This document shows positions 37,850-62,427 of a DNA stretch of 64,000 nt, one piece after another. Location: the IMG/VR virus record IMGVR_UViG_3300026522_000022, positions 32,001 to 96,000 of that record, one strand, 5' to 3'. Origin of the DNA: a virus. Taxonomy: Duplodnaviria > Caudoviricetes. The translations under genes and the position numbers were made by a program. The notes beneath the pieces are model-generated. The model did no database searches. It was not told where the DNA came from and saw nothing but the letters and a program-made list of their open reading frames with translations. Position 1 is the first letter of the stretch, and the number at the start of each line of letters is the position of its first letter.

Positions 37850-38467
37850 TTATACGTTTTTGGCCAAACCTTTATGTATCCCATGAATTTTAATTCAATA
37901 ATATATCATAGATACTATTTTAGATGAATCTTTTTCATTATGAAAAATAAGAAAATCCTTAAAATAATCGTTTAAATATTTTTCCATTTTCTTAAAATCT
38001 TTATGGTCAGCAATAATACGTCTAATAAATTCTTTTTTAAGTTTATTTTCACGTTTTATTGACCTATTTAATCTAGTAAAAACATTTGTATCTATATATA
38101 TAGGAATAATAGTATAAAAACTTTGCAGTTCATTTAATTGTTTTAAACTTTTAGGATTAAAAATTCCAATATTTATCATAGTATCGACTATTTGAAATTT
38201 ATTTGTTCCATAATATCAATTATTAAATTTAGTATATTCTAAATACCGTCCAAATATAATATTATGCCCGAATACTTTATTAGAAACAAAATGATAATCT
38301 ATATCTTGATACTCATCTTTTCTTCGCGGTCTAGTTGTATCGTGTAACAAAAGTTTTGAAGGAATATTATTTTTCTTTAAAAGTTTATGCAATTCTATTG
38401 CTAGAGTATTTTTTCCAGATGCAGATTTTCCTAAAAATGCTATAATTATAGGTTTAATTTTCTTCAT
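37850..38467 (-). CDS. gmk: Guanylate-kinase-like nucleotide kinase (205 aa, 2 TGA)
   Basis: GKSASGKNT P-loop, TTRPRR...DYHFVS, FNN(W)YYGT. Confidence 0.75.
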
Positions 38468-41400
38468 CTTTTTCTCCCCAACGTTTATTAGTAAACTCTA
38501 ATGTACCATCCTCGTTAATCTGAGTAATCTTATAAAGTTGGTGTGAATTTGTCTTTTTATAAGCTTTCGTAAAGAACATATTTCCACGACGAAAACCATT
38601 CACCATTACTTTTGTACCACGAGTAAACCAACCATTTTCCTTTACTTTTTTTGTTCCATCAATCTGAACTTCACTAATCCTTCTATTATACTTTGCATAA
38701 TAATCACGACTAAATTTAACTGTTACAACTCCACTGTTCGGAGTCAAAATACTAATTGATGATTTATTATCATCTTTCGCAATTACAGTCCCAACAATTC
38801 TTAATGTTTTAAAAATTGGAATCCGCACATTGTTTCTCTTAAAGGTATAATCAACAACTGGATCTTCTGGCAAATACTCATATTCATGAATATTATACTT
38901 CTCACAATCAATATTCTTCAAAACATGTGGATGATAATAAAATCCTAAACTATCCATTTCCCAATCAGACAATGTACCTTCCGCATACTTATCCCATACC
39001 TCTTGGAACAAAGTATTATTCAATTTATTAAGAATATCTTCTTGATGCTGCTTAAAATATGTGCGGGCCGCATCCATTCCCTTATCATAAAGTTTCTTCC
39101 AAACTTTCTGACTAATTACCAATTCACCATCAATATTTGGTTCAAGTAAATCTACATCAAAAAATTCTTCATAAAAGTCATAATAATTATCTTTTACAAT
39201 AAAATCATCACCACTTTTACAATTTGCTTTTAGTGCTTTATTAAACACAAACAATCTTTTTTGAAACTCAAGATGTTCTGGAATCAAATTTCTTTCCATT
39301 AATCCATTAAAATTTTGAAGTGTAATTCTCTTTTTTGGTTCGCAAACACTCCAAATATATTCTTTCATAATTTCTTCTCTTTTACCAAATGAATCAAATG
39401 CTCCACTCTTAATCAAAGAAATCATAACAGTTTTATTACACTTAACTTTCTGTTGAAAGTCTGTTAAACTTGCGTATGGTCTATTCGCAATAATTTGCTG
39501 AATAATTTCTCCACCAACGCCATTTAATGCCTTCATGCCGTATAGAATCGTGTCTGTTACAACATCCGGTTCAAACATATAACCAGAACGATTAATATCA
39601 ATCAATGATACATCAATGCCGCGATTAATAATATTACCTACTGCTTTTGCAATCTTACCATAGTTTGTACTTGCTTCTTCCTCCAAACCACTGTCAACTC
39701 GAAGACAAGCTGTATTCCAATAGACAGGATTGAAATAAGTTGCGAGATAAATCGTTTGCAAACCAACAAAACTATATGCTAAACTATGAATTAAACTAAA
39801 ACTATCATTCACCCTCAAGTTTCCAAGAGGAATAGACTATCTCTTACCCGCTTTCGCGGGAACACCCATTTCCAATTACGTATCAATAGTAATTGTACTC
39901 CCAGTCTCACCCAGGATAGTCGTTACAGGTTTCTTAGTGGATATTTTATATTGTTATCTTTATGTGTTTCGCCCTTATTGATACGTCGGACTGTTTCAAT
40001 AGAGCAATTATATTTTTGACTTATTTCTGTTATTGATAAATTGTTTTGTAACAATTCTTCTTTTATGTAGTCTGCTTTATTTTTCTTTCTTATTGGATAA
40101 GTAGGATACAATCCTTTTCTTAATTTTCCACTATTTATTTTTTTAACAGTAGAATATCCAATATTTAATTGTCTTGCTATGTCAGCTAAAGATAAATAAG
40201 ATTCAGTTAATAATTCAATTAATTCGTCATAATCAGAATCTTTTTTATAATACTGAAAAAGAGGATAATCAATATCTTCATCGTGATAATAAATTCCATG
40301 ATTAACAGATGATATAAAACTTGCACTTATATTATATTTATTTTGTAACTCATAATATTCAATACCTTGTTTTATATCTTCTTTTAATTGTTGAATTTGT
40401 TCATTAGATAATTTACCTTCATACTTGCGAGATCCACCCAAGTCCATGTTATATCCTTGTCCAAATCCGCAATATGATTTTTTATTATCAATTCAATATT
40501 GTTCTCGACTATTTATATAATTTTGATCATTACTAGTTCCTTGCTCCAATAAATATATATTAAAATTATTTTCTCCATATTGTCTAATTTTTTTATGAAT
40601 AAGATCATTATAAGAACTAGCATTTTTATTAAAAGCACAAGAACGATGTTCATTAATTCGACGGTTATAATTATTAGTTTGTCCGACATAATTATGACCA
40701 TTAATTTTATTTTCATAACAATATATATAATACATTTCCACCAAGCCTTCCCACGGGATTGCCATCACAAATGGGGTATATTTTATACCCTCATTATATA
40801 TTAGGTTTCCCCGTTAGCCAATTATAAAAATTGACCCCGCCGATAAACGGAAAAGGTGTTTAGGGGCAAGTTTTTTGTTTACCCCATCTGCGGCTTAATT
40901 GCTGTTTCCCAAATATACGCACCAAGATTTTCTGAAGTTGCTCTATCCATTACTCTTTGATGAAGTTCTTCAATACGATTCATTTGTTTCTTTGCACAAA
41001 TTTTTCTCGCATCGTTCGCTTCTTTCAATGTAAACCCGCAAATATCTTTGTCCATCAAAATCATCATCATATCTTCTTGCTGTGCGGGCGTTGCATAAGT
41101 TGACAGATAATACTTTTCCAATACCGCAATATCATGTTGAGTAATATGCCATCTTTTAAGCTCATCATACCAAAGATTCATATTATCCATCATTCGCTTA
41201 TATCGTTCAGTCGGCGTCTCTCCACCTTTTTCTGTTGCCATCAGCCGCATACAACTATTACTGTTTGCCATTTCCTTTGGTGTGCGCGGCTGCAATGTTT
41301 TAACTGTCTGACTTCCAACTTGTGAATCAAACTGGAATAACTTCAAAACATTTCCAGATGCTAATGTATCCCACATTTTATCATCTTGAATCGGCAAAAC

Positions 41401-43351
41401 ATCTGGATGAATGTACTTATTATAAACTTCTCGCAAAGTTAATTCTGGTTCAATTTCTTCATGCTCTTGGAGCATTTGAATACACTGAACAATAACATCC
41501 TGAATTTCTGTTACAAGAAAATCATACTTTACATCACCTACATATTCCGCGTCATGAAGTGAATATTGAGTTACAATTGCTCCACTCGTTGCTTTCATAA
41601 AACATGCTGTCTTATATGGGTCATTATCATAAAAATTAACGCCTGACGCATGAATACCACGATGGTTAATAAGACCCTCAATGTTTTCAATAATATTCAA
41701 AAGTCCTGGATACTTGTTTACTTCATTAATAAAATTCTTTACTGGTTTGCGGCCAGTCTCTTCGTTTCCATATACCAGATCATGAATCGGCCAAACAAAT
41801 CCTCGCTCAGATGGCGCAAGACTTGTCATATACTGCGCAATATCGTTGTCAATTCCATTTGGAAAACTTTCACTACGATAACCACGACATGCTGTTGCAA
41901 TTGCAGAACGAGTTGACTCTGTTCCATATGTACAAACTTGAACACATCCAAGTTGTCCGCGCTCTTCACGAATCTTACTAAAAATCTTTTCTCTCTTGGA
42001 TGGACAAATATCAATATCAATGTCGGGGAGTTCTACACGATCTTTATTCAGAAAACGCCAATATGGAAGTTCATACTTAATCGGGTCAAGCTGTGTAATA
42101 CCGAGAAGATAATGATTTAATCCTGCACAAGCTGAACCACGACCCGCGCCTACTGTGCTGCCGCACTCCCAAAAAAGATTAATATAATGCTGAAGAAAGA
42201 TTGGATAACTAAACATACAAGTTTCCAACTTATCTCCAATTGTTTTTTGAATATCTGCTTCCTCTTCAAGACGCTGAAGATAAACATCATTATATAAACC
42301 AAGTTCTTTAAGTTTATCTACACAATAATTAACCCAATATCTTTCTTGAATTTCGTCACTTTGATAAAGATAATCAAGAGTTTTATATCCAAGAGAAGAT
42401 GAAATCTTAGGATAATTATGAACCTCTACTTGCGGCACCTGCTGTTTGTGTGCCAAATTAAAATTTTCAATCTTATCATAAATCTCTATTGTATTCTTTT
42501 CAAGTTCATAATAATCAAGGCCAGTATCTTTAAGATTTTCAATTACTTCTTCAGTTGATTGAAGATATGCATACTCATAAAATGCATCGACTTCTCGCTC
42601 ACCATTCTTTGAATTAAGATATGCTTTATGAACTTCTCTATCTGCTTTTGAAAGATAATGCGCGTCAGTTGTTACAATAATCTTAACACCAAAATATTGC
42701 GCGAGAGCTTTCATGCGGCTGTTGACAACCATCTGCTCTCTACTTCTTGCTGGCTGAACTTCAAAATAATAATCATCACCGAACACATACTTGCACCACT
42801 CAACAAAGTCAATAATTTGATTATAATACTTTGTTTTACCCTCAATGTTTCCAAGATGTTCAGCCTTGCACATTTCAAGAATACAATAATCAAGTTCTGA
42901 ACCAAGACATGCGGAGGATGCAATTAGATTTCCTCGACCATACTTTCTCACAATACCTTCGAGGTCACTTTTAAGAGTTGGAACCCTCTCCATACCACGG
43001 TCATAATAACTATTCATCCATGCAATAGACGAAAGTTCACGTAACATTTTATGTCCTGTTGCATTCTTTGCAATCAAGATAAAATGATAATATTTTTGCC
43101 CAGTTTCTCTCGTATCAGTAAGATAAATTTCATTACCGAGTGCTACTTTAAAATCAGGATATTCTTTCGCAATTTGATGACGATATTTATCTATAACCAC
43201 ATGACCGCCGAGAGACTCGTGATCCGTAACGGCGATCCCCGTAAGTCCAAGTTCAATTGCTCTATCTATAAGTTTTTCTGGGAAGTTAATTGAGTCAAAG
43301 TAAACGAATATTGCTGTACATTGTATGACTATGCAGCTCCATCCTACCCAA
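38454..43351 (-). CDS. dnaE: DNA polymerase III alpha subunit (~1273 aa); needs a +1 frameshift at 43300-43294 and splicing of intron 40880-39806
   Basis: PHP motifs LHSHTMYS..LL/DS...AVTDHE, GAGRGSA, PDIDID, HASG, KYDFL; splice restores MG|YSFSLIHS; strong AAGGAGG RBS before TTG 43351. Confidence 0.9.
39806..40880 (-). mobile_element. Group I intron in dnaE (1075 nt) with GIY-YIG endonuclease
   Basis: P1 GGGGT/GCCCC; terminal G; T|AT restores Tyr of GYSF. Confidence 0.9.
39923..40735 (-). CDS. Intron-encoded GIY-YIG homing endonuclease (270 aa, 1 TGA)
   Basis: YIYCYENKINGHNYVGQT...RRINEH...EQY(W)I...GYNMDLGG; HTH-like repeats. Confidence 0.85.
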
Positions 43352-43395
43352 TATTCTCCCTCCTTTCAAACTATTCTTTCTCAATTTGTATATTT

Positions 43396-43424
43396 ATTAT
43401 ATCATAAAAAAACAGAGCTGTCAA
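43396..43424 (-). promoter_or_regulatory. Sigma70/SigA-type promoter of dnaE
   Basis: TTGACA-17-TATAAT with TG; the -35 lies inside the inverted repeat agagctgtc-aaac-gacagctct. Confidence 0.8.
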
Positions 43425-43983: not shown

Positions 43984-44012
43984 ATTATACCATATTATTT
44001 TTTATCTGTCAA
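43984..44012 (-). promoter_or_regulatory. Sigma70/SigA-type promoter
   Basis: TTGACA-17-TATAAT with TG. Confidence 0.75.
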
Positions 44013-44098: not shown

Positions 44099-44851
44099 TT
44101 AAAATGATCAATCTTTTAGCAATCCATCTTTATAATAACCGAGCTTTTCAACTCCTTTTTGATTATTTTTATTAACTGTGCGGAAACCGGTTCCTTCTCA
44201 AGCTAAATCAAAATCATCAGGCAATGTCTGTTCACTACATAAAACATAGCATCTTTTACTTAATTCTCTAACCCAATCCCAATATTTTGCATGATCAAAC
44301 CCTCGCTCTCAAGAATAACCATATTGAGTAGTGTTTTCATATGGCGGGTCACAATAAACAAGACTACCATTAGCAATATCCAAATTTTGATATTCACTAC
44401 AAATGAAAGTTACATCTTCTAAATTTGGAATCTGAGCTTTAAAATTTCTATATCTTTCATCATATACATCACGGTTACGTCCAGCTTCAGCATAACTTCC
44501 ACAAAATCCTTTCGCTGCGAAAGAATGAAAAAATGCATATGCTCCTTGTACATACAAAGGAATATCTGATTCAACTTGATCTCGATAAACATCTCGAGCT
44601 TTATTAAACTCTTCTCGAGAACAAGAAGTAGGAATTTTTGAAAAATCTTCTTGACCTTGTTTAAAAAGTGCAATTAAAATTTTATTCTTATCAGCACCAT
44701 ATTTATTTTTACACTTTATCTTATCAATAATATTAGCACCGCCTACAAAAGGTTCTCAATAAATCTCTATTCCCTTTTTATCAATTATTTCTTGTAATTT
44801 TGGAACTATATTTCCGGCATATTTTAATTTACTTCCCATATAAGTAACCAT
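44099..44851 (-). CDS. Dam-like DNA adenine methyltransferase (250 aa); TGA=Trp
   Basis: YMGSK, Y(W)EPFVGGANII, VYCDPPY motifs. Confidence 0.85.
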
Positions 44852-44861: not shown

Positions 44862-47709
44862 CTAAAAAACTCATTTAGTATCCAGTTTATAATCTTCTAC
44901 AATAAGTTGAGCGCTAACATTCCCATTCCATTCATTTTTAGCTGCTCGACAAATTGCAGTTAAAATTTTATTTTGACCTATAAAATTTTCATACTCTTCT
45001 TGCGAAGATTTAAATTTCATAATATCAATTCCATTATCAAGATGAATCTTAATCGTTGGGTGCTTATCTGGAGAAAGTAAATGTACTTGATAAGGTTGAA
45101 TAGAAATGTTTTCTATACAAATATAAGGTTCAGAAATTTCTTGTCCCCAATAAGGTTTTGCTTCTGCTATTGAGAGGATATCATCGCTGCTCATGTCATT
45201 CAAAGACCAAATAAAGTCCACCCAATAGATAGGAGAATTAGATACATTTTTATATTGTTCATTTGTACTCTCTATAAAATCTTCTAATTTTGATTCTGGG
45301 ATAGAAATACCGAATGCTGAATCATGACCTTGCGCATATTCTACATCGCCCGTATCTTCACAGAGCTGCCGCATATCTTGAATTTCAGACATATTATAGT
45401 TGCGGGCGCTGCCACGATAAAACACTTCTTTATCATCTTTAGTTTTACTTTTAATTAATACTAAACAAGGACGCTGATATTTTGCTTGAATTTTATTTGC
45501 AACTAGTCCTGCGAGATTTTTTTCTACTTCTCCTGGTTCACACTTAAAAATAAGAATGGCATTGTCAAGAAGATTTTCCTCTAATATCTTGTTTTCAAGA
45601 AGAGCCATTGTCGAATCTTGTAACTTTGTTTGTCTTGCTTTAACATTGGTACAAATCCTTACTGCTTCTTCTACTCTTGGAACCATTTCTCCTTTGTGAC
45701 CACGTTTGCCGCTAGGAATTTCCTCGAAAGCGTACATCTGTAAAAATGATTTAAAAATCATATCTTTTTCTTCTGCGGTTCCTGAACGAACCATAGCATT
45801 AATAAAAGGAGTTACATAAAATGCAATTGACATGTAATTAATGCCACCCATTTTATTAATACTAAACTCATTCTTTTCTGTCATATAATAAAAGAATGGG
45901 TTTTTAATATTTTTTAATCCTAAATTAATAATAGCTCTGGTTTCTAATGAACGATAGTCCATCATATCAGACAACCACAAACTCTATTGTTTCCAATAGT
46001 GCAGACTATATTTTACTCATATGAGTATATCTCTTTCGGTTTTCACGCACTTCGTTTCCTAAAATGCGGCTGCGTATCAATAGCAACCCTACTTCCCAGC
46101 ATTTCAACCTAAGGAATAGTCGTTACAGGCTTCGATTTAAATATTCTTTCAAGTATATCTATAACAAACTTTTCTAATTGTTTCTTTTGAAACTTCTTGA
46201 TAATCTTTAGCAATTTGTTTTCATTGCTCTCCATCATCAAATCTTTTTCTAATAGCTAAAACTTTTTCTTTTGTAAGTTTTGCTTTATTATTTCTTTCTC
46301 CAGAATTAGCGATTGAAGAATATTCTTGACGAGTTTTAGCTCCTTTAGGAATTATAAATTCTTGACCGATTTCTTTATAGCCATTTCCTAATCAAACATT
46401 TTCAAATGTATTAAAAGATATATTGTTATAATCTTTATATACATCTACTTTTCTTTCTCCAAAAAATCTACGTTTTCTAATATCTAAAACTTGTTCATTG
46501 GTAAAAACTGCTTGATTAAAATCAGAACCACTTAAAGTTGAATTATCTCCGCCAGGAGTTAAATTATATCCTTTTTCTTTATCATTAGAATGATAAAAAG
46601 CAATTCAATATTTTTCTCGTTCTCCCATCTGCATTCTATTTTCAGAATTGCAGAAATCAAGAATTTCTATTTCTTCAATTTTTCCATATTTATTAATAGC
46701 TAAATCACAAGGAGTTTTATTTGTTGATGGATTATTATGTTCTCACATTCTTCTTCTAATATCATTACTCATTCCTATATATATTTTATTATTAGGGAAA
46801 GTAATTTTGTAAATGCCAGACATATTATCCATTAAATCTTTTACTTGAATTTTCATAATACCTCCCTTCCGCAGGAGATATTTAAATCGATTCCCACGGG
46901 ATTGCCATGTATAATAGAGGTTTATCCATCATGTCTTCATGTCTCTATTATATTTAGGTTTCCCCGTTAGCAAATTATTGAGTTTTACCCAAAAATTTAC
47001 CCCGCTGATAAACGGAAAAGATATATTAGCACGTTTATAAGTTCATGCCTAAAGCAGCTAAATCTAATAAATCAACAGAATGACATTTAACTTCAAAATA
47101 ATTGCCACCATTGGAAAAATAAGAGTCCATTGCACGACACATATGCCATGTTACGCCAGCACCACTTAAATTTTTATTAGGATAATCACAAATTTGATTA
47201 TTAATTATAATGGCATTTTTATTCCATACATCTGAATGGTGATGATCCATACAAATTACATCTATACCATTATCTAAAAGAGCTTGCATTTCATCTACAT
47301 CATTAGTTCCTGCATCTGGTATAACAACTAATTTTGTCCAATTATCATTTAAAATATCTTCATAACAATCAGCTAATCCGTGTTGTTTACCTGTATGTAA
47401 TATATAATCTATATGCGTAGCCGCATATTCTGGTCATTGAGCGTATAGGTAATTAATAAATATCGCGGCAGAAGTAAAACCATCTGCATCACTATCTACA
47501 ACAACAGTAATATTATCTTCATCGTGATATGCTTGAATTATTCTTTGAATAAGTCTATTAACCATTTCTTGACCAAATAGACTTTCATCATAAATTTGTT
47601 TTCCATCTGCGTTTAACCAAGTATCTAATTCATCGAATTTTAATCCACGATTAATTAATACCTGGGTTAATGCTGAATATTTTGGTTCATTAAATATTTT
47701 GTAAATCAC
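44862..47709 (-). CDS. recJ: RecJ-like DHH ssDNA exonuclease (~592 aa); exons 47709-47045 and 45975-44862; 2 TGA
   Basis: DSDADGFTS, PDAG, DHH, LSGAGV; splice gives AALGM|LSDMMD; GSAR and GHDSAFG. Confidence 0.88.
45976..47044 (-). mobile_element. Group I intron in recJ (1069 nt) with GIY-YIG endonuclease
   Basis: P1 GGCAT/GTGCT; terminal G; core shared with the dnaE and gyrB introns. Confidence 0.85.
46137..46856 (-). CDS. Intron-encoded GIY-YIG homing endonuclease (239 aa, about 5 TGA; absent from track)
   Basis: SGIYKITFPNNKIYIGMSNDIRRRM(W)EH...EKY(W)I...GYNLTPGG; GGAGG RBS. Confidence 0.85.
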
Positions 47710-48172: not shown

Positions 48173-49246
48173 TTATAATATCACCCTATTTCTAAATAAA
48201 TATAAAAATTTGTCTTTTCCACAATCTAATGGAGAATCTTTATACCCTAGTTGATTATTTTCTTTATCAAACAAGAAACTAATTGTTACATATGGACTAT
48301 ATTTATCATAAATTTTTTGTAATTTATCTACGACTTTATTGTACTCTTCTGAATTTATTTCGTCAAAATCTTTATCGAATCCAATGATAACTTCATGTGC
48401 GCCGCATTCTTCTAACAATTGAAATTGATATTTTGATAATGAGCTGCCGCACACAGCGACGCATATATTTGACATAGTTCCAAAATAACTCATAAACTGT
48501 AAAACAGATTTTTCAGATTCAACTACAAGAGCTACGCCCATATCTTTAATATTGTCTTTCGCTTTATCTAATCCATATAAATTAAAAGCCAAAGGATGAT
48601 TGCAGAGTTTTCCTCTTATTTTGGTTGGTCTATATTTACCATATTTTTCATCCTCTTGGACAAGAGTTCTTTGTCTAATACCAACCAACCTACCATTTTC
48701 ATCTTTATGCGGAATTAAGATAACCCCATTTTCTGGATTATATCTTATCCCCATATAATCACAAATTTCTTTTTTAATTCCTTCTTTATACCAAGGAACA
48801 ATTAAAGGTTGTGGATAATTAATTAAAACTGATTCGTTATATTCTGGCAATTCTACTTTTTCATTATTAATTTCAATGTCGTTAATTTTATCATAACGAC
48901 TAAAAATCTTCCAATCTTCAATTGTAAAATCATCATCAGCTTCGCTAATTTGACTTTGAAGATTGAAGAAATTAACTACAAAATAGATTGCCTTATTTAG
49001 ATCGTCAATCTCTCTAACCTTTTGGACTAGTTCAAAAACATCAAAACTGCCGCATGAACCTGTATAACATTTAAACAACTGTGTATTCTCATAGTAATAT
49101 AACTTATGTGAATCACCATTATGACAAATAGTCTTTGCTACAATATAATTACTATACATTTCTGGTTCAGCTTCAAAGAAATCCAATAGAGAGTAAATAT
49201 CTTCTAGTTCAAGATTTTCTTTAACTATTTCTTTACTATAAGACAT
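48173..49246 (-). CDS. dnaG: DNA primase (Zn-finger plus TOPRIM)
   Basis: TICH...FKCYTGSCG; VVESEKSV...IIGFDKD...KDSP. Confidence 0.8.
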   Translation of the reverse strand: MSYSKEIVKENLELEDIYSLLDFFEAEPEMYSNYIVAKTICHNGDSHKLYYYENTQLFKCYTGSCGSFDVFELVQKVREIDDLNKAIYFVVNFFNLQSQISEADDDFTIEDWKIFSRYDKINDIEINNEKVELPEYNESVLINYPQPLIVPWYKEGIKKEICDYMGIRYNPENGVILIPHKDENGRLVGIRQRTLVQEDEKYGKYRPTKIRGKLCNHPLAFNLYGLDKAKDNIKDMGVALVVESEKSVLQFMSYFGTMSNICVAVCGSSLSKYQFQLLEECGAHEVIIGFDKDFDEINSEEYNKVVDKLQKIYDKYSPYVTISFLFDKENNQLGYKDSPLDCGKDKFLYLFRNRVIL

Positions 49247-51380: not shown

Positions 51381-52385
51381 TTAAATACCCATGCCCATAG
51401 CTTCAACAAGGTCATCAACAATAAGTGCGAGCTGTTCTGTCTGAGAACGAGTCATATCGCTAACTTTCTTTCCAGCTCCAAGGTACTTAGTTGTAATTTC
51501 AACAATTCTTGGCGCCCATGTAGTTCCAAAAGAACTACCTGTTACTTCTTGGAGTTTAGCTACAGCCGCGTTAAATTGATTCATCAAATCGTCAAAATCA
51601 AGCTCAGGTTGCGGCGTATGTGCAGTAGTACGTTTATCTGTTACATATTTACCTTGAGTTTCTTCTGCCTGCTTATCAATAGCATTTCCAATAGCATCAA
51701 CAAGATTTTGATAAGTAAACTCAATTGAATCAGGAGTATACTTAAAACGAGAACCAGCTACAAAACGTGGAGTACCCCGCATATAAAGAGTAGTATGAAC
51801 AGTTCCATCTTCCTCTTGGGATGCATGGGCAAAACCAATAATATCAGACATGCGATCTACAATAAGACGAGGACGATTAGCAAGAGTAGGAACAATTTGA
51901 TTATACTCTACACCATTTTCATCTACAAACGATTTGTCTTGAGAGTGACTAATCATTACAAGACCATATCCCATTTGCGGGATACTACGCAGAGCTTCGT
52001 CAAATTCTTTGCTTGCCTTAGACCAACCTTGACCATAAGGAATTTCATTAATTGCGCTAACACCAGCTTGATTGCAAATAAACTTTTCACAAAGATCGTA
52101 TGCAATATCTGCCGTATCAATTACAATATTAGAAAATTGTTCGTGAGCTTTTTCATCTTTAAGCTGCTTAAGAACTTGTTTAAATTCAGACCATTTATTA
52201 ATTGGTTGCGCCATAATTCCAGGAATTGCAAGATAACCAGTTTCAAAAGCAAGAAGAAGAGCTTTAGGAAACTGAGACGCAATGGTTGTCTTACCAGTCT
52301 TAGGCTCACCATAAAGCATTACCGTATATCCACATAAGTCACGGCTAACTTCATGGGGCTGAATTGAGAAAATATCAATAGCCAT
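51381..52385 (-). CDS. AAA_24 / Sak4-like NTPase (recombination)
   Basis: LYGEPKTGKTT, IVIDT, LVMISH; adjacent to SSB. Confidence 0.75.
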   Translation of the reverse strand: MAIDIFSIQPHEVSRDLCGYTVMLYGEPKTGKTTIASQFPKALLLAFETGYLAIPGIMAQPINKWSEFKQVLKQLKDEKAHEQFSNIVIDTADIAYDLCEKFICNQAGVSAINEIPYGQGWSKASKEFDEALRSIPQMGYGLVMISHSQDKSFVDENGVEYNQIVPTLANRPRLIVDRMSDIIGFAHASQEEDGTVHTTLYMRGTPRFVAGSRFKYTPDSIEFTYQNLVDAIGNAIDKQAEETQGKYVTDKRTTAHTPQPELDFDDLMNQFNAAVAKLQEVTGSSFGTTWAPRIVEITTKYLGAGKKVSDMTRSQTEQLALIVDDLVEAMGMGI

Positions 52386-52403: not shown

Positions 52404-53336
52404 TTAAAACTTAAAATCACCAGTGGATGCGGCAGGCTTTGCGTTACTTGCGGGAGCCACAAAAGCACTTGTAGAAGCATTACGAGAAGCCTGATAATCC
52501 TCAGCACGCTTTTTCTCTGCGGCTACGCGCTCTTCACGCTCAACGAGCTTCTGCTTAAACTCATCAACTGTAATAGTGGATTCATCATCGTACTCATAAG
52601 GCTCAGCCGCACAACCTTCAATCTGCCAAGAACGAAGAGTACGAGTTGTAATATTAACCTGCGGACCACCAAACGCAGACTCAACCTCATTCTTTGTCTC
52701 AATTGTGGTGGAGATAATGTTACCCCAAACACGAGTAAGAAGAGGATTGGCGTTGCTAATATCACAATTCTCAAAATACTTAATACCATCAGGGTTCTTA
52801 ATTGTATAAGTTACAGGGAGAACATCGCCACGGAAGTTGAACGCATATCCGCGAACATTCATATAATCCTCGCCATCCTCAACCTCTTGCAGAGTTGCTT
52901 CTGCAATAAGCATATCGGTTTCAAAAGATGCCTCGAAATTAACATCATTCGCAAGATGGCAGAAACTACCACGAACACGCTTTGCCGCAACCATACCATC
53001 ACGACCAAGGAAGTCATTAATCTCTACGTCACCATCAATACGAACCTTAAGTGCAGAGGTACCGACTTCCTCAAAAGTATTCTGAGTTCCACTAAGAATT
53101 TGCTGAAGAACCTTATAAGTTGCATTCTCCTTACCGCTACGAGCATAACGCTCAGTAACATAAGTAAACGAAACAGGAACGACATTCATACCCTGATCAT
53201 CTGTCGCAACATTAATAATACCCTGAATGAAAGGAGTACCAGGATTCTTAGACTGCTCACCCGTTACTCGTGCCTGTAGACTGTGTGAAAAAATGTAACC
53301 CTCAACATGTGTATTATTTGTCCAGTTTGTGCGCAT
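52404..53336 (-). CDS. Probable single-stranded DNA-binding protein
   Basis: Two OB-like halves, flexible tail ending GDFKF, next to the Sak4-like gene. Confidence 0.55.
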   Translation of the reverse strand: MRTNWTNNTHVEGYIFSHSLQARVTGEQSKNPGTPFIQGIINVATDDQGMNVVPVSFTYVTERYARSGKENATYKVLQQILSGTQNTFEEVGTSALKVRIDGDVEINDFLGRDGMVAAKRVRGSFCHLANDVNFEASFETDMLIAEATLQEVEDGEDYMNVRGYAFNFRGDVLPVTYTIKNPDGIKYFENCDISNANPLLTRVWGNIISTTIETKNEVESAFGGPQVNITTRTLRSWQIEGCAAEPYEYDDESTITVDEFKQKLVEREERVAAEKKRAEDYQASRNASTSAFVAPASNAKPAASTGDFKF

Positions 53337-53422: not shown

Positions 53423-53686
53423 TTATCTTCTCTCACCCCATGCGCAGTAGCCGTCGGGCTCAACTTCGCCGAACCCCTCACAATGCCAGACGCGCCCCCA
53501 TGGCCCGTAGTCCTCTACGTCAACGTTCATGCAATCCCTGCACCGCACGAGGTCACCCATGCGCTTGACCGCGCTCCATCCGTCCCAGTAGGTCGGGCGA
53601 TACTCAGACCAGATGCCCTCGTGCTCAGCCATCGTCCACCCCAGCCTTGCCGCCACCTCGCGGCGCTCGTCGCTAGTCATCGTCAT
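53423..53686 (-). CDS. GC-rich hypothetical protein (MTMTSDERREVAARL...CRDC...C...YCAWGERR)
   Basis: GAGGTG RBS; Cys cluster; composition foreign to the genome. Confidence 0.65.
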   Translation of the reverse strand: MTMTSDERREVAARLGWTMAEHEGIWSEYRPTYWDGWSAVKRMGDLVRCRDCMNVDVEDYGPWGRVWHCEGFGEVEPDGYCAWGERR

Positions 53687-53963
53687 TGCAGCACCTCTCA
53701 TATGTCTTGTTAAATATGTCTTGTTTGCATGGATATAGCTCGCCATTGACGCCCTTAATGATGTAGTCGCCGAGGTTTACATCCATCTCGCCCTCAAGCG
53801 TCCTAATGGTGCATTCAACTGGGTAATTTGGATTTGTCTTCTGATACACTACACCACTCACAATCGCATCAGCGAACCATTGTGGGTAATCTCGATTACG
53901 TATTGTATACATCAAGATTTGAAAAGCTTCAACCTCAATTGACCTTTTGCGGTATCTTGCCAT
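53673..53963 (-). CDS. PGDYG-like conserved phage protein
   Basis: MARYRKRSIEVEAFQ...IRTLEGEM...GDYIIKGVNGELYPCKQDIFNKTYE. Confidence 0.75.
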   Translation of the reverse strand: MARYRKRSIEVEAFQILMYTIRNRDYPQWFADAIVSGVVYQKTNPNYPVECTIRTLEGEMDVNLGDYIIKGVNGELYPCKQDIFNKTYERCCNDDD

Positions 53964-54105
53964 CTCTAACCTTTCAAAGCGGTCATCTCCGCAGACTTCG
54001 CAGTCCATTGCTTCACCTTTCTTCCACAGTTAAGGCAGTACTTCTGGGTATATCTCCACTCAGAAGGGCCATATCTTTGCCCTTCTTTGTATTTATAATT
54101 ACTCA

Positions 54106-54744
54106 TTATTTATCAGGCCAAATTCCCGTAATGAATTCATTGTAAGGAAGTGTATGAACCCATTCTACAAAATCTTTAGACCATTGCAGCAGCCTGTGGT
54201 TTTTTCTTTGACGATACATTGCTGCTAATGTTTCATAATTTAAGCAAACGGTACGTTTTTGAATAAATGACTCTGGTAACATAGCTTTTAACATTTTTAA
54301 ATAATAATTTTTACGTTGAGGGTCATTTTTCGCTCGGTCAGCCGCAGTTTTTAAAACATTAATATAATCTTTAAAAGCAACTTCAATATTTCAATCTGCT
54401 CCATCAAATTCAGGTCATTCAAAATCTTCTTCGTCAAAATCTTCATCTAAAATTTTATGCATAGTAGATTCTGAATTTGCAGATGTGCCTATTTTATAAG
54501 TATCCCATTCTGCTCACCAGTATCTCGGCGCTCAAATATCTGCTCATACCTGAATCATACGTAAATATTTTCTATGTTCTGTTCCAGCTTGCCAAAGATT
54601 CTTTGCTAACTTATAATCATTTGGCCCAAGATAAAAATGACCATTATCCCAATAGGAATCATATTTGTTATATGACTTTAAAGGGTTCCGCATACCTCGA
54701 ATAGCTGGTTCAAAACCACTAACATTTAGAGTTTTAAATTTCAT
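54106..54744 (-). CDS. ThyX-like flavin-dependent thymidylate synthase fold protein (212 aa); several TGA
   Basis: AIRGMRNP, EHRKYLRMIQV(W)ADI(W)APRYW(W)AEWDTYK, STMHKI, LPESFIQKR, QRKNHRL. Confidence 0.65.
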
Positions 54745-55676
54745 TAGCCTATTCCCTTGTTCCCATTATAACCTAAAGAATTAGAGTTATAAAGTGAAAT
54801 AAAATATTTCTCTTTCTTATCTAAGTCTTGCGGCGGACACTCTTCTAATAATTCAAAACTGAAATTTTCAATTCCATATTCCTGCATAGCCGAGTATAAT
54901 TTATTTCCTGTGGGAGTATCAATACCAATCGCGGCCTTAACGTGATCGTTTCATCTAAGCCGCACATCTTTAGCTTGACCAATATAACATTCTTCTGTTT
55001 GAAGATTTGTTATTTTATAGATGCCGCATACATTTTGTTTTCCTAATATTTTAGGAAATTTTATTTTAGTTATTGGCTGATAGTATGCAGTTCATATTAC
55101 CATAGAAAGTGCGCGAGGTTTTGAAATTCTCATTTTAGTTTCTTCAAGGATTGCAATATCTCTTTGTTCTCCTTTTGGAAGAGACAAAGTAAAAAAATCT
55201 TTATTTGCTTTAATCTCTTTTTCTTTGCGTGCGGCTTCAATAACAGCAATTTTAGTATTTTGTAAAGACTGTAATTCTAAACCTGTTTCTTCAATTTCAA
55301 CTAACATTTTACGTCTTTGATTTTCAAGTTCAGTTAAGTCTTTATTAAATTCAGCCTCTAATACTTTTCGACGTTCTTCCGCAGCTTCTTCGGCTAACTG
55401 TTTTGTATTTTCAATTACTTTTATTTTTTCTTCATACTGACTTTGCAGTTCCGACTGACGGACCTCGGCCGCATGAATTTGTTCTTCTCTTCATTTTATA
55501 TCAGATACTAAATTTTTAATTCTTAATTCTAACTTTTCTTCTTGATTGTGTAATTCTTCGCAAGTTTTTCTTATTTCTTCGTTTCTATCTTCTATTGGTT
55601 TAGAAGCAAATTTGCGACCTACGAAAAAGGCAATAATAATTAATATTATTGCTACAACTCAAAAAATTCCATCCAT
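54744..55676 (-). CDS. Membrane-anchored coiled-coil protein with C-terminal GIY-YIG nuclease domain (310 aa); TGA=Trp
   Basis: N-terminal TM (IF(W)VVAIILIIAFFVG), long coiled coil, CGIYKITN...CYIGQA...R(W)NDH...GYN. Confidence 0.75.
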
Positions 55677-56036: not shown

Positions 56037-56140
56037 ATTATATAATATTATTTCTTAAATGTCAATAAATTTTATTTCTTAACTTTTATTATCTCCATTT
56101 AAGATATATATATTATACTAATTATTTTTTATTTAGTCAA
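56037..56140 (-). promoter_or_regulatory. Two tandem sigma70/SigA-type promoters
   Basis: TTGACA-17-TATAAT (56065-56037) and TTGACT-17-TATAAT (56140-56112). Confidence 0.75.
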
Positions 56141-56145: not shown

Positions 56146-56328
56146 TTAACTAAAAATTACTTGTCTGCCACAATTTGGACAGTATATATTTCCTTTTACC
56201 CCATTTCATATATCTGAACTACAACCTTGATGATTACATTTAGAACAATAGCCTAATTCACCACCAATTCAATATTCTTTATTGGGGTCTTGCACAATAT
56301 CATCGTTCATATTTTTAATTTCGTCCAT
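56146..56328 (-). CDS. Zinc-ribbon protein (60 aa, 2 TGA)
   Basis: CSKC...CPNCG; coupled to the ligase stop. Confidence 0.55.
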
Positions 56329-57353
56329 TAGGCAAATACCTCCTCTAACTGACAATCTTTAATATCTTTATCATAACGCATAGTCTCAAATACTGGATGA
56401 CGAATAGTCTTATCCTTTTTGTTCAAAGACATACAAGATACTTGAACTACTTGATTAAGATATTTTTCAGGATTTTCAGCCATATCTGCACGAATATCAT
56501 CTGATAATCCTGAAGCTACACGACCTACTTCAATAATCTTACCATTTTTATATGCACCCAGCCGCATAGCATTTTTCCAACCATAATAATAGTGTTTTGT
56601 TACTGGTTCACCATCAATCCAATATTGCCAAGTTTCAAGCTCTTTGCCCGTATATTCTTTAATTGGATCAAGCAATTCCATGCATATAAGATCAACGCTA
56701 TCAACATGTTCTTTCATCTTAAAGCAAGTCATAGGTCGCTTATCTGGCTCGTATATACTATCTTTGCGTTTAAAGACCATACCTTCGCCGCCCATTATAA
56801 AAATATTATTAAGTATACTTTCAAAATCTGAATCGTAAATAATACTTAAATGAACTTGCGGCGAGTATTCAAAATTCTTTAGATAATTCCATCTATCAAT
56901 AAATCCAATAGAAGTCAAATCTATACCATCGTACCGTATACAATCAAAAACATAATAATGAATTAACCCACCAAATTCATCGGTTTGAGTTTGACGCTTA
57001 ATCGCATTGGCGGCTGTGCATCCCATAATCTTTGTAACATCATTTGACTTACCACCGGGCACAAAAATCTCACCAATTAATACAGTTTCATTTGGAAGCT
57101 GCTTTGCCCACTCAATAATATGCGGCACATTCGCAGATTTTTCTGTTAATTCTCCAGTTTTCTTGGATTTAGTTCTGCCAAAGAGATAGATACGTTTATC
57201 ATCTATCTTTTCTAGCATATACCAAGCTCCATCAATCTTTTCTTGAGCAACCCAATCTCCGCTTGTAAATGCGGCATCAACAATTGAATCAGCTGGTTTA
57301 TTGTGATACCGCATTGCAGGGACTTGATGTGACCCAGAATACAGGCTAGACAT
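56328..57353 (-). CDS. ATP-dependent DNA ligase
   Basis: QEKIDG, LIGEI, YVFDCI, GEGMVFK, FKMK, IRHPVF. Confidence 0.9.
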   Translation of the reverse strand: MSSLYSGSHQVPAMRYHNKPADSIVDAAFTSGDWVAQEKIDGAWYMLEKIDDKRIYLFGRTKSKKTGELTEKSANVPHIIEWAKQLPNETVLIGEIFVPGGKSNDVTKIMGCTAANAIKRQTQTDEFGGLIHYYVFDCIRYDGIDLTSIGFIDRWNYLKNFEYSPQVHLSIIYDSDFESILNNIFIMGGEGMVFKRKDSIYEPDKRPMTCFKMKEHVDSVDLICMELLDPIKEYTGKELETWQYWIDGEPVTKHYYYGWKNAMRLGAYKNGKIIEVGRVASGLSDDIRADMAENPEKYLNQVVQVSCMSLNKKDKTIRHPVFETMRYDKDIKDCQLEEVFA

Positions 57354-59508
57354 ATTTCTTACCCTTTCCCGCACGGCCTTGTACTTTAATACCTTTTATA
57401 GTCTTATTATACTTTTTAAATTCAATTGTGTCAACGGCAGGATGACAAACCAAAGCTTCAATAACATAGTCACCATCTTCAAGCGAAATTCCCTTTACGC
57501 CGCGTGCAGTTTTTCCAACCGGATTAACTTTATCAAGTTCAAATTGAATAATATAACCATTATTAGAAACAATAACTGCATAATCTCCGTTGCACTCATA
57601 CCAAGAAATATATTCATCTCCATCGACAAGACCAGCAGCCTTCATTCCCTTTTTGTTTTGGGTTCCGCCAAGATAAATTGTCTTATCTGATTTTTTAACC
57701 AAACCGTTCTTTGTAAACCCAACAATATAAGGATGTTTTTCATCAATATTCATTGAGAAAATATTCAAAATTTTCTCGTTTGCTTCAAGATTGAGGATTG
57801 AACCGACAGCCGTTCCCTTATCTTTCATTCCACATTCGGCAATATTATCTACACCGATGCGGAATACCTTTCCAAGAGAAGAGAATAGAACAATCATATC
57901 TGTAGTTTGAGTTTTAAAACTGTTAACAATATTATCATTCTTAACTGAGCGGTAAGCCTTCACAGGAATACGTTGGAGATAACCGAGTTTATTGTAAATT
58001 ACAATTACATCTTGCGGGATGATCTGCGTAATCGGCTTCTTTGCAGTCGGCTTGATAATCTTCTTCTGTGTTACATCTGTGCGGCGGTCATCGCCAAATT
58101 CCGCACACAACTTTTCTAATCTTTCAATTAGAACTTCTTTTTGTCTTTTAGCAAATGTGGCAATATCTTTGCAGTATGCCGCATATTCTTCTTTCTTTTC
58201 TTTCTCTTGGACTAGCTTCTCTTCTTCGAGTTTTGAAAGACGTCCGAGTTTCATATCAAGAATTGCTTTAACTTGACGCTCGCTAAGTTCTGGATACGCA
58301 GCGCTTAGGTTCTTATGAGTTGATTCACCGCGAATAACTCGAATAATACTATCAATTCTTTGAACTGCAAAAATTAAACCTTCAAGAATATGAAGTCTGT
58401 CAATTGTTTTTTGATATTCAAATTCAAATTCTCGTTTTATGCAATAAAGATTGTGTCCCATATAAGCATTTGCAACTTGATTTAAATTAAGTAAATGGGG
58501 AGTTTTACCAATTAGGGCAACTTGGTTAGCATTATATGTTTGACGAAGATCTGTCTCTGCAAAAATCTGATTAAGTGTAATATCAATATTTGCATCAGCC
58601 GCAAGCTCTACGACAATACGAACTTGCTTTGAACTTTCATCGCGCACATCTTCAACACCAGTAATTTTTTCTTTAATAATTCCTTCGCAAAGCTGAGGAA
58701 TGATGCCCTTAGACTTTCCTTGGTCGCTATATTCAATCTTTGTGCTATATGGAATTTCATAGAATACAAGAAGTTTCTTACCATTACGAGTTTCTTCTCT
58801 ATATTTAGCTTCAAGAATAACCTTCCCTCTACCGGTACGATAAATAGAAGCAACCTCGTCTTGGTTTACAATAGTTCCGCCAGTAGGAAAATCAGGAAAA
58901 AGATTTGTATAATCAATCTCTTCTCCTTTGATATAAGGAATTAAGACCATATTAACAATATCTTTTAGATTATGCGGGAGCCAGTTACATGCAAGTGCCA
59001 CACCAATGCCGCTAGTTTGGTTACACAAAAGATTTGGAAACAGTGCCGGAAGAAGAACTGGTTCTTCAATATCTTCTGAATAGTTTGGCCGCATATCAAC
59101 AACATTTTTATTGATTGCATTTAGAAAACCGGTTTCAGCCAGTTCATTAAGACGGCATTCTGTATAACGCATAGCAGCTGCGCCGTCTCCACCAATGTTA
59201 CCCTTATTACCATGCCAGTCAATAATAGGATAACGCATATTCCATTCTTGCGCAAGTCGTGTCATCGCATCATATATGGATGTATCTCCATGTGGATGAT
59301 ACTTACCCATTACATCACCGACAATACGTGCGCATTTTACATATGATTTATCGTGAAAAAACTTTTCTTGATTCATTGACCATAAGATGCGGCGAGCAAC
59401 TGGTTTTAAACCATCTGCCGCATCCGGAATTGCTCTGTCGGTGTTTACAGCATAGGCGTAATCAATAAAGTTTTGCCCAAGCTCTGCACAAACATCATGA
59501 TTAGACAT
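57346..59508 (-). CDS. gyrA: Type IIA topoisomerase (gyrase-like) subunit A
   Basis: DGLKPVARR, YHPHGD, AAMRYTE, C-terminal pinwheel repeats. Confidence 0.9.
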   Translation of the reverse strand: MSNHDVCAELGQNFIDYAYAVNTDRAIPDAADGLKPVARRILWSMNQEKFFHDKSYVKCARIVGDVMGKYHPHGDTSIYDAMTRLAQEWNMRYPIIDWHGNKGNIGGDGAAAMRYTECRLNELAETGFLNAINKNVVDMRPNYSEDIEEPVLLPALFPNLLCNQTSGIGVALACNWLPHNLKDIVNMVLIPYIKGEEIDYTNLFPDFPTGGTIVNQDEVASIYRTGRGKVILEAKYREETRNGKKLLVFYEIPYSTKIEYSDQGKSKGIIPQLCEGIIKEKITGVEDVRDESSKQVRIVVELAADANIDITLNQIFAETDLRQTYNANQVALIGKTPHLLNLNQVANAYMGHNLYCIKREFEFEYQKTIDRLHILEGLIFAVQRIDSIIRVIRGESTHKNLSAAYPELSERQVKAILDMKLGRLSKLEEEKLVQEKEKKEEYAAYCKDIATFAKRQKEVLIERLEKLCAEFGDDRRTDVTQKKIIKPTAKKPITQIIPQDVIVIYNKLGYLQRIPVKAYRSVKNDNIVNSFKTQTTDMIVLFSSLGKVFRIGVDNIAECGMKDKGTAVGSILNLEANEKILNIFSMNIDEKHPYIVGFTKNGLVKKSDKTIYLGGTQNKKGMKAAGLVDGDEYISWYECNGDYAVIVSNNGYIIQFELDKVNPVGKTARGVKGISLEDGDYVIEALVCHPAVDTIEFKKYNKTIKGIKVQGRAGKGKKYV

Positions 59509-62427
59509 AAATTTCCGCCCTTTCGCTGTTATCTCTAATGTAAATCTTGCGCTTTTCTGCATCTTTGCCCATCAATTGTTCAAAGAGCATATCAGCTTTG
59601 CCAAAATCTTCAATCGTAATTTGTTTAATAATTCTGGTTTCAGGATTTACTAGCGCCTCTTCGATTTCGTCAGAAGACATTTCTCCTACGTATGATTCCT
59701 TTATTTCTAAAGGTACTGACTATTTCTTCTATCGTATGATAGCTCACCGTTTCCACCTATGTACCAATAATAGGTGTACTCCCCAACAACGGGGATAGTC
59801 GATACAGGTTTTATTCTACGACGATATGTTTTCAATTATATCCATTCCAGATATTTTTAAAAGAACCTTTTGTAATACCCGTATATTTATAATCTTCATA
59901 TACATCTTTTTGTTTTTCGCCATTCTTTTTTCTTAAACGAATGGCTAATACATCTTCTTCAGTAAGTTTTGAACGACCGTTTTGTGAACCTTTTTGTCCA
60001 GTGTTATGTTTATGAAATTCTATATTTTCTGGAGTGTAAACATCCATCATAACACCTTTTCAAGTTTCTCCTTTTCAAATTTTAGAAAAACCTGAATGAC
60101 CAATTTTATCTTTATAAAGTTGCTCAACTTCTTTACAACGTTCTTTATTTTTATATCGTGTTCTTATATCTATAACATCTTGTTCAGTCATTTTATGCCG
60201 TGGATGATTTTCTCCATTGTTTCCCTCTCCGCCGCATCTAATATTATAACCATTATCATGAACTAAAGAATGATAATAATTAATTCAATATTGTTCTTTT
60301 TTATCTAAGTCATTCAAAGAACATTCTTCAATCACAGAAAATATAAAATTTTCTATTCCGTATTTCTTAAATGCTTTGTACAGAGGAGAATCGGCGTGTC
60401 GTTCTTGCTCATATGGAGATTTATGTTGCGTCCATCTTCTTTCAATAAAATTAGATTGACCAATATAAATTTTACCATTTATTTTATTTTCTATTTTATA
60501 AATACCAATCATATTATCTCCTTTCAATAATGATTAGAGATAATATCGTAGTAGAATAACTTCCCACGAGATTATCTTCTACTATATATAATTTTTAACA
60601 TTTCACGGTTATCCTGAAATACCCAAAATTATTTTATAGCGGTCAGACTCCCTCGTTAGCCGCAAATGCGACCCCGCTGGTAAACGGAAAAATGAGTAAG
60701 GGCCAGACTATCTCTTACCCTTTTAAACGACTAACTTGATATTTGCTAATATCATTCTCTTGCTTAAATTCGGCAAGAGCATCGTCATCTTTAATATAGA
60801 TAATCTCTTTATTATTTTTCAATCTGAAAAGTGGTGGAACGCCCGCATATACAAAACCATCTTGAATCAGTTCTGGGGCAAAATTCCATATAAACGTATA
60901 AAAAAGATTTTTAATATGAGCTCCGTCTACGTCAGCATCGCTCATAATAATAATTTTTCCATAACGCACATCAGCCTTATTGTAGACAAGACGCTTGCCA
61001 TCTGCACTAACTTTCAGTCCAAAAGCATTAATCATATCTACAATCTCTGCATTTTTCATAATCTTATCCAGAGTTGCCTTTTGAGTGTTAAGAATCTTAC
61101 CACGAACAGGAAGAACCGCTTGATATTCGTTATTACGAACTTGCTTTAGATTACCACCTGCAGAATCGCCCTCTGTGATATAAATCTCACATTTACTTCT
61201 GTCCTGACTATAACAATCAGCAAGTTTAGAAGGAAGATTTAAAGACTTCTTCTTTGGCTCAGTCTTTACTTTTGCCTTAACAGCAGCCCTTGCTTTCTTC
61301 GCAGCTTCTGCCGCACGTCTAGCTAGAAGAGCTTTCTCAATAATATTTCTTCCATCTGTTGGATTGTTGTCTAGCCAAACTTCAAGTTGTTGTCCAAGAG
61401 TAGAAGAAATAAATGAAGTATCAATCTTAGTTACGGTTGTTTTAACCTGGGCATTATAACCAACATTTTCAGCAGTGATATTGCAGACAAGAATCAAACC
61501 TTCTTGTAGAGAACTACCATCAAGATTCTTTTCTTTTTCTGTAAGAATACCCTGCTCTTTAGCCCACTTATTCATAATACGGGTGATGGTAGATTTAATA
61601 CTTGTGATGTGCGGACCTTGCGTAGTATTGCCGCAATTAACATAAGTAATAATATTGCTGCTGTTCCGAGAAGTGTAAGTTAAAGCCAAATCAAGTTTTT
61701 GTTTTTTCTCTTTCTCTTGGATAATAAGTGGTGTATTAATAATTTCAATATCAGTTCCAATATTCTTTTTTAGAAAATCGGAAATACCATTTTCATGTCG
61801 AATTTGTTCATTGTTAAATACAATTGTCAAATTAGGACAAAGGCATGTAATATCATCACAAAATTCTTTAAGCTTTTTAATATTAACATGCGGGTCATCA
61901 AAGAATTCTGCACTTGGCTTAAAGGTTACTGTTGTACCTGACCAGTTAAAACCGTCTCCAACTTCGCGCTTATCAAACACACCTTCTTTAAACCAAATAT
62001 GCTCATACTCACCAGTCTCTTTGTGAGAAATAACTTCCAACCAATTAGAAAGAAAGTTGGTAAGTTTGCTACCTTGGCCGTGTAGCCCCAACGCGCTACC
62101 TTCATACACTCCATCTGAAGAGAATTTACCAGATGTATTCATAACATCAAACGAAGCTTGGAGGATAGTTTCATTATCTTCACGAAGAACATTGATAGGA
62201 AATCCTTGTCCTTCATCTTCAATTTGAACAACACCATTATCAGCAATATTAATAATAATTTTATTTCCGTGTCCAATATTGTGCTCGTCAATAGCATTAG
62301 CTAGAATTTCTAGTGCCAACTGAGTAGGGTCTTGAGTATCTCCAATATACATACCAGGGCGTAAGCGAACATGCTCTCTAGGGGCCAAAGACTCAATACT
62401 ATCATCAGTATATAAAGTTTTATCCAT
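59501..62427 (-). CDS. gyrB: Type IIA topoisomerase (gyrase-like) subunit B; exons 62427-60717 and 59688-59501 (~632 aa)
   Basis: VRLRPGMYIG, EGDSAGG, PVRGKILN, DADVDG; splice restores RLKG|LGEM. Confidence 0.9.
59689..60716 (-). mobile_element. Group I intron in gyrB (1028 nt) with GIY-YIG endonuclease
   Basis: P1 GGGT/GCCC; terminal G; T|TA restores Leu of KGLGEM. Confidence 0.9.
59811..60512 (-). CDS. Intron-encoded GIY-YIG homing endonuclease (233 aa, 4 TGA)
   Basis: MIGIYKIENKINGKIYIGQS...RRWTQH...EQY(W)I...GYN; repeated KLTEEDV..IR modules. Confidence 0.88.

Follow-up and report, generated by a model that had tools for sequence, protein, structure and literature searches.

The window analysed here is a 64-kb stretch (bases 32001-96000) of a 130,610-bp IMG/VR virus record, IMGVR_UViG_3300026522_000022, a linear phage genome of 35% G+C that is about 90% complete (CheckV). 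Tryptophan (Trp) codons were counted per gene under code 4, and pairs are written TGA/TGG. The ten open reading frames (ORFs) of the replication machinery, referred to hereafter as the replisome, carry 0/51, as compared with 278/290 in the rest of the genome (Fisher test, 1.8e-14). We propose, with a probability of roughly 60%, that purifying selection keeps TGA out of genes that are needed before a phage suppressor tRNA is active, and that TGA in other genes may serve as a delay. Coordinates below are those of the window unless marked as genome. The plus-strand half of the window is the tail module and the minus-strand half (31234-63876) is the replication and nucleotide-metabolism block. The sequencing runs containing phage sequence were bovine and sheep gut metagenomes, including one bovine metatranscriptome; the genome itself comes from the bovine gut or rumen.

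ORF coverage rose from 0.716 with translation table 11 to 0.891 with table 4, and the longest ORF from 774 to 2925 amino acids (aa); table 11 fragments the plus-strand genes, while reading TGA as sense restores contiguous ORFs. Two relatives whose DnaE is 73-74% identical, G001 (125 kb) and G002 (145 kb), use the standard code, with 12-13% of their genes stopping at TGA. In alignments with these genomes, TGA stood opposite Trp in 92 of 173 cells, followed by phenylalanine, leucine and tyrosine. Glycine was found in just four cells, and code 25 is thereby excluded. All seven TGAs of the gene at genome 7078-8184 fell in Trp or aromatic columns in an alignment of 40 homologues. These alignments indicate that TGA is a tryptophan codon in this phage.

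The replisome ORFs lie on the minus strand. They comprise gyrB (60715-62430, 0/6; Pfam DNA_gyraseB, Toprim and HATPase_c), gyrA (57346-59562, 0/5; Pfam DNA_topoisoIV, 1e-122), an ATP-dependent DNA ligase (56328-57374, 0/7) with a perfect sigma-70-type promoter at 57434-57406, a phrog_2367 ORF (52404-53336, 0/3), an AAA_24 ATPase (51381-52385, 0/3), orf 50802 (50802-51275, 0/2; perfect promoter 51330-51302), the DnaB helicase (49256-50788, 0/6), a Toprim primase (48173-49246, 0/2) and the two parts of dnaE, N-terminal (40879-43200, 0/10) and C-terminal (38454-39818, 0/7), across which the Pfam families PHP, DNA_pol3_alpha, finger and HHH_6 were matched. Code-4 ORF calls placed one TGA each in gyrA (codon 14 of a longer ORF) and in orf 50802, and both lie 5' of ATG starts; in gyrA this ATG is at 59562, where the code-11 ORF also begins. 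An earlier note on this DNA had claimed about 50 Trp codons for the replisome, all TGG, and the count of 51 TGG and 0 TGA agrees with it. Its label of SSB (single-stranded DNA-binding protein), apparently meant for the phrog_2367 ORF, was without Pfam or PDB support.

The per-gene counts and Fisher test that the same note had proposed also separated the replisome from the eleven interleaved minus-strand ORFs within 38454-62427 (31/26; 1.7e-11). At the level of genes, TGA fractions differed between these two groups with a Mann-Whitney value of 8e-5, and only 32 of 200,000 random ten-gene sets were free of TGA. TGA-free and TGA-bearing genes alternate within operons. From the promoter at 63344, for example, a homing endonuclease (5/0) is followed by gyrB (0/6), a GIY-YIG endonuclease (4/2) and gyrA (0/5). 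The TGA-bearing recJ, gmk, Dam, nrdD and homing endonuclease genes share such early-type operons with TGA-free genes.

The partition is not explained by base composition. The G+C share at third codon positions (GC3) is 0.241 in the replisome and 0.335 in a heterogeneous class of remaining genes, which still uses 40% TGA. Among genes outside the replisome and the head module, those whose share of codons ending in G (NNG share) is as high or higher carry 65/109, giving a p-value of 2.5e-9 against the replisome. GC3 alone, which the earlier note had named as a possible cause of the bias, thus fails to account for it. Counted only at Trp positions shared with the standard-code relatives, the pairs were 0/36 in the replisome, 26/26 in tail genes, 9/10 in other minus-strand genes and 9/1 in homing endonucleases.

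A second TGA-recoded relative (L005), whose DnaE is 77% identical and intact at 1274 aa, repeats the split. Its DnaB (0/4), primase (0/3) and DnaE (0/20) lack TGA, while its RecJ has three TGAs and its gmk two. Where the two phages have Trp codons in common in dnaE, dnaB and primase, all 22 of 22 are TGG in both, whereas in recJ and gmk TGG and TGA have been exchanged in either direction. Because L005 keeps the same genes TGA-free while the Trp codons of recJ and gmk swap, a recent import of the replication block is excluded. We conclude from these comparisons that the avoidance of TGA in the replisome is under selection and is neither compositional nor inherited.

A candidate for the decoder of TGA was found outside the window. 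A tRNA(UCA) gene at genome 115149-115436 (L004:4539-4826) consists of two exons (115149-115181 and 115374-115436) separated by a group I intron of 192 nucleotides (nt), inserted between U34 and C35. Preceded by a U and ending in G, the intron matches the full RF00028 model (41.9 bits, E 1.9e-9). The spliced tRNA forms a perfect cloverleaf with the anticodon loop CUUCAAA, an A1-U72 pair, G73 and an encoded CCA. It also bears a long extra arm; the loop of this arm, CUCCAAA, is a copy of the anticodon loop of tRNA-Trp. In a homologue on another IMG/VR contig (L081), a compensatory change from A4-U69 to G4-C69 spans the intron. A pattern scan of IMG/VR contigs (L081-L145; hits on contigs of about 48-178 kb) gave nine intron-less and 20 intron-bearing copies, the present one being among the 20, and the exon junction was confirmed by the nine intron-less homologues. 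Inserts in this family measure 192-707 nt, occupy the same 34/35 site and are of several intron types, some with ORFs; the CCAAA arm is present in 27 of 29 copies and its stem covaries. Neither of the standard-code relatives, G001 and G002, has the gene.

ARAGORN and Rfam tRNA scans reported ten or eleven tRNAs, none with a UCA anticodon; such finders miss the suppressor because the group I intron splits its gene. Searches of the record for a gene of the RF-1/RF-2 release factor family (PF00472) and for a class Ib tRNA synthetase gene, the family of the tryptophanyl-tRNA synthetase (TrpRS; PF00579), were negative. The 5' exon and the intron ruled out two readings of genome 115350-115436, namely a tRNA-Trp(CCA) with a defective D arm (a Hirsh-type suppressor) and an attP-like 3' tRNA fragment. 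A weak tRNA at genome 107098-107168 has the anticodon CUU and is thus no suppressor. Among other RNAs, a ROOL RNA (RF03087, 347.6 bits; genome 112384-112985, L004:1774-2375) lies just 5' of the GH25 lysin and suppressor tRNA genes. A tRNA-Thr(UGU) of 86 nt (genome 109104-109189, L003:14104-14189) and a tRNA-Ile(UAU) of 92 nt (genome 109341-109432, L003:14341-14432) each have a long variable arm, unusual for these isoacceptors, and a similar tRNA-Ile(UAU) occurs in G002.

Perfect TTGACA-N16-18-TATAAT sites number 16 in the genome, where shuffled sequences give an expectation of 0.3, and they are concentrated before the replication and presumed early operons. In the window they lie, all on the minus strand, at 33281-33309, 43396-43424, 43984-44012, 51302-51330, 56037-56065, 57406-57434 and 63316-63344. 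Six of the perfect promoters precede replication operons, including those of dnaE, of orf 50802, DnaB and primase, of ligase and of the gyrB group. Because perfect host-type TTGACA-17-TATAAT promoters precede it, the replication block looks to be transcribed early.

The following sequence of events would account for the partition. A standard-code host must translate the replisome, transcribed from perfect host sigma-A-type promoters, before the phage tRNA(UCA) works, and TGA would have been purged from those genes. Before it could read TGA, the tRNA would have to lose the 192-nt group I intron that interrupts its anticodon loop. In genes whose delayed expression does no harm or is of use, TGA would be tolerated or even enriched; these include the homing endonucleases, the tail genes, a putative late-transcription factor and some enzymes of nucleotide metabolism and repair. 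The code, the partition, the selection on it, the suppressor gene, the promoters and the splicing of one nrdD intron in RNA are established; we infer the temporal order, in which TGA would act as a translational delay.

The virion and lysis genes support this proposal in part. The tail and other virion module (1-31182, plus strand) is rich in TGA, with 120/67 in the tail genes of the window. There are 19 TGAs in the gene of the tape measure protein (2924 aa), and 25, 13 and 11 in those of proteins of 2363, 1135 and 1097 aa, respectively. At 90% read-through per codon, an ORF with 25 TGAs would yield a computed 7% of full-length product. With up to 25 TGAs per ORF, near-complete decoding is therefore needed when tails are made, and such efficient decoding fits a switch over leaky read-through. 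The view that late, virion and endolysin genes use TGA held for the tail and for an endolysin-like protein with ELLD and ricin-lectin domains (30199-31182, plus strand, 5/2), and did not hold for the GH25 muramidase (1/14, encoded outside the window) or the head module.

Several observations weigh against the proposal. The head module (portal phrog_2739 onward; genome 11529-18233, outside the window) is, at 1/15, as TGA-poor as the replisome, so that the split is not simply one of early versus late genes; in known phages, head genes act late. TGA is also borne by gmk, nrdD, dut, recJ and Dam, enzymes of a kind usually produced early, and function does not map neatly onto early versus late. The suppressor tRNA apparently lies behind a sigma-A-type promoter, and its synthesis could therefore begin at once, in which case any delay would have to come from accumulation and splicing alone. 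The RNA data are contig-level and cannot rank genes. Finally, the closest genomic relatives of the GH25 lysin are from Bacilli at only 43-51% identity, too weak a match to name the host.

Because the head module is TGA-poor and the usual early enzymes bear TGA, a cost of decoding stays a serious rival or complement to timing. A UGA suppressor competes with release factor 2, and TGA may have been purged where slow decoding or premature termination is costliest, namely from an essential multi-subunit replisome and very highly expressed head proteins, drifting in elsewhere under AT pressure. This would account for the 1/15 of the head module, which timing alone does not predict, and it is consistent with a TGA share that follows third-position AT (tail, GC3 0.19 and 64% TGA; homing endonucleases, GC3 0.14 and 71%). 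Few gene families were significantly TGA-biased in the genomes of Borges et al. either (bioRxiv 10.1101/2021.08.26.457843). On the other hand, the highest numbers of TGAs (19 and 25) occur in the longest proteins, which demand near-complete decoding, and expression of the replisome is not expected to exceed that of the tail proteins. The heterogeneous remaining genes combine their higher GC3 with 40% TGA, and the 9/1 of homing endonucleases at conserved Trp positions is above what drift would give. We regard decoding cost as a possible explanation, though well short of an even chance.

It is doubtful that the partition belongs to a wired, layered switch that also involves tRNA splicing, gated late transcription and a frameshift in dnaE. 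In such a switch, a host sigma-A promoter would make the tRNA precursor, and self-splicing would have to precede UGA reading. The second component would be the gene at genome 7078-8184 (368 aa), in which seven of nine Trp codons are TGA and which ends in a C-terminal CxxC..H..CxxC motif. A perfect promoter stands 33 nt 5' of it (both in L001:7016-8184), and the 56-kb plus-strand block that starts with this gene and takes in the head and tail modules has no other such site. Late transcription might then wait for recoding, and the head genes would therefore need no TGA themselves. The label 'sigma factor' came from PHROGs only, with no Pfam match and no name among 2236 homologues; an AF2 (AlphaFold2) model with a predicted local distance difference test score (pLDDT) of 75.6 gave generic helical matches only with Foldseek and VIA-align. 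As the sigma-factor annotation is unconfirmed, a TGA-gated late activator is no more than a lead.

The third component would be a +1 site in dnaE, CTT TGA C (43300-43294), which has the prfB core of a slippery CUU followed by UGA C, with Leu-Asp after the shift. With a prfB-like CUU-UGA-C, polymerase would be produced only as long as decoding of UGA is poor, and production would be off once UGA means Trp. Frame 0 reads ..NIRLL-W-L-N-stop, and frame +1 continues as DSINFPEKL..TDHE, homologous to NIRLLDCIN of the relatives; in the N-terminus the shift joins MELHSHTMYSNIRLL to DSINFPEKL. No stimulator resembling a Shine-Dalgarno sequence was found 5' of the shift, the upstream AATATTCGTTTA being without a purine-rich element. 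The shift is absent in L005, L006 and L017, in which this region is in a single frame. Metagenome contigs were scanned twice for the site, allowing for presence or absence of the extra base, and gave no copy; among the contigs listed for the sequencing runs, no independent one covered 43294-43300, which speaks neither for nor against the site. The extra T may be an assembly error. A second site singled out by the earlier note lies in nrdG, where an in-frame TAA falls inside the radical-SAM CxxxCxxC motif (33779-33756, minus strand; C-S-stop-Q-S-L-H-C-K-G-C) with flanking TCT repeats. This stretch has the same letters in an RNA contig and six bases fewer in a related DNA contig. Both sites are thus present as claimed in this assembly; they rest on one assembly, and that in dnaE is missing from the relatives.

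A mosaic origin, in which the replisome came from a standard-code phage in recent times or simply differs in its third positions, has been largely refuted and is very improbable. The replisome and head genes are the best conserved with the standard-code relatives (50-73% aa identity), and their NNG share is 0.30, as compared with 0.17 in the tail. Nevertheless, the divergence is much too deep for recent transfer, and within single operons TGA-bearing ORFs take turns with TGA-free ones from gene to gene. L005, which diverged independently, lacks TGA in the same genes, and the NNG-matched control argues against composition.

Together, the GH25 muramidase and the endolysin-like lectin protein imply that the host has peptidoglycan. 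Classical code-4 Mollicutes are without it, and a Mollicute-type host is disfavoured by the muramidase. The host is probably a walled, standard-code member of the Bacillota. A code-4 host, in which the bias would reflect codon preference or module ancestry and with which the lack of release factor and TrpRS genes in the record and of a UCA tRNA in standard tRNA scans would agree, is the least probable alternative, given these lysins, the phage's own UCA tRNA, standard-code relatives at 73-74% DnaE identity, another relative that is TAG-recoded with a CTA tRNA, and 51/51 TGG at GC3 0.24, which it would leave unexplained.

The dnaE gene is split by a 1078-nt insert. Exon 1 (43342-40882, minus strand), which needs the +1 shift, lies behind the perfect promoter 43424-43396; the insert (40881-39804) carries a GIY-YIG gene (39923-40768, 1/1), and exon 2 (39803-38454) is colinear with intact DnaE. 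By tblastn, the halves correspond to residues 19-823 and 825-1274 of the L005 protein, and sense Trp codons over both exons amount to 0/17. In the same way, a 1072-nt insert (45975-47046, minus strand) with a GIY-YIG gene (46137-46973, 6/2) separates recJ exon 1 (47047-47709, 1/4) from exon 2 (44862-45974, 1/5). Together the recJ exons carry 2/9, match Pfam DHH, DHHA1 and RecJ_OB, and are colinear by tblastn with intact L005 RecJ. In related DNA (run X3), position 45969 is joined to 47051 without the insert. Neither insert matched RF00028, so that their nature as introns rests on intact colinear homologues and on insert-less related DNA. Among the RNA contigs listed, no joint across the dnaE or recJ insert was seen, which is likewise neutral evidence.

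At gathering thresholds Rfam reported nothing in the window, and group I introns emerged only at E-value thresholds. One of them (34599-34884, minus strand; RF00028, 45.2 bits) lies in nrdD, which is spread over five colinear pieces (33972-37777, minus strand, 1/2). The intron is spliced, the joint 34598>34885 being present in RNA runs X2 and X9, from one sample, and not in DNA runs; related DNA is without nrdD inserts 1 and 2. The second insert contains an HNH gene (35756-36283, minus strand) that is TGA-free (0/3), as is nrdG (0/5).

The remaining minus-strand genes of the block include a homing endonuclease (phrog_559/9084; 62420-63211, 5/0) that is the first ORF downstream of the perfect promoter 63344-63316, a free-standing GIY-YIG homing endonuclease between gyrB and gyrA (59811-60527, 4/2; Pfam GIY-YIG) and another at 54744-55676 (4/0). 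A protein that had been labelled thyX-like (54106-54744, 5/7) had no match in Pfam and PDB searches and belongs to phrog_6721, with no function assigned. Further genes are an ORF at 53673-54008 (0/1), orf98 (3/2) and orf69 (2/0), both within 38454-62427, a Dam-type N6-adenine methyltransferase (44099-44851, 4/2) and guanylate kinase (gmk; 37850-38467, 2/0). Because gmk overlaps the dnaE stop, the two genes are in one operon.

The nearest annotated phages, with DnaE at about 41% identity, are Enterococcus Schiekvirus-like and Bacillus SPbeta-like, and YonB, YonD and YonG families were found among the head-module neighbours of a homologue. A more distant relative than G001 and G002, G003 (L043, IMGVR_UViG_3300028805_000058; DnaE 60%), has a CTA (amber) suppressor tRNA beside its tRNA-Trp(CCA). 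In loci L018, L030 and L031 of three further relatives, reading TAG as sense raises ORF coverage. The clade is accordingly a mix of codes 11, 4 and 15.

Group I introns occur in the anticodon loops of bacterial and plastid tRNAs, for example between positions 34 and 35 of tRNA-Leu(UAA). The suppressor intron resembles these in lying between U34 and C35 after a U, in ending in G and in its full match to RF00028. It differs in residing in a phage opal suppressor with a long extra arm that copies the tRNA-Trp loop CUCCAAA.

The study of recoded phages by Borges et al. reportedly appeared in Nature Microbiology in 2022. Its Jade phages are TGA-recoded and encode a code-change operon of TrpRS, RF1 and a tRNA (bioRxiv 10.1101/2021.08.26.457843). 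The present phage shares with them TGA as Trp, code-change machinery in standard code and, probably, a Firmicutes-type host; unlike them, it has no RF1 or TrpRS gene in this record, only the tRNA. The crAss-like phages with TAG as glutamine or TGA as Trp have been described (Yutin et al., 2021, PMC7886860; Peters et al., 2022, PMC9523058). They likewise combine late-gene stop recoding in standard-code hosts with phage suppressor tRNAs and introns in replication genes, but belong to a different order and infect hosts of the phylum Bacteroidota.

The closest parallel is with the TGA-recoded 'Agate' phages of about 127 kb from cattle, pig and tortoise gut, which have standard-code replication machinery, recoded structural and lysis genes, very close standard-code relatives and a TGA-preferring group I intron endonuclease within an early gene, and for which it was proposed that recoding delays late and lytic proteins (bioRxiv 10.1101/2021.08.26.457843). 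The present phage matches them in size, cattle gut habitat, TGA as Trp, standard-code and TAG-recoded close relatives, standard-code replication machinery, recoded structural genes, a TGA-preferring intron endonuclease in an early gene, and a flip of gene orientation and GC skew between genome halves. Size, habitat and shared traits suggest that it belongs to or adjoins the Agate type.

The TGA split and the timing idea are therefore already published, and the present case is one more genome; the timing interpretation was put forward as a hypothesis by Borges et al. and is partly supported by these sequences. The case backs the view that the genes which a recoded phage needs first stay legible in the code of its host, and adds little to it. 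It is clean, statistically strong and evolutionarily controlled, two diverged recoded lineages being compared with standard-code sisters. What is new is the partition gene by gene inside single early operons, which points to separation at translation rather than transcription, and the exemption of the head module from TGA use (1/15), in which the phage departs from the Agate type. It departs also in its suppressor tRNA, which is intron-split and invisible to ARAGORN and Rfam. TGA suppressors were detectable in only 35% of code-4 genomes (bioRxiv 10.1101/2021.08.26.457843), and an intron-split suppressor helps to explain why many such phage genomes seem to be without one.

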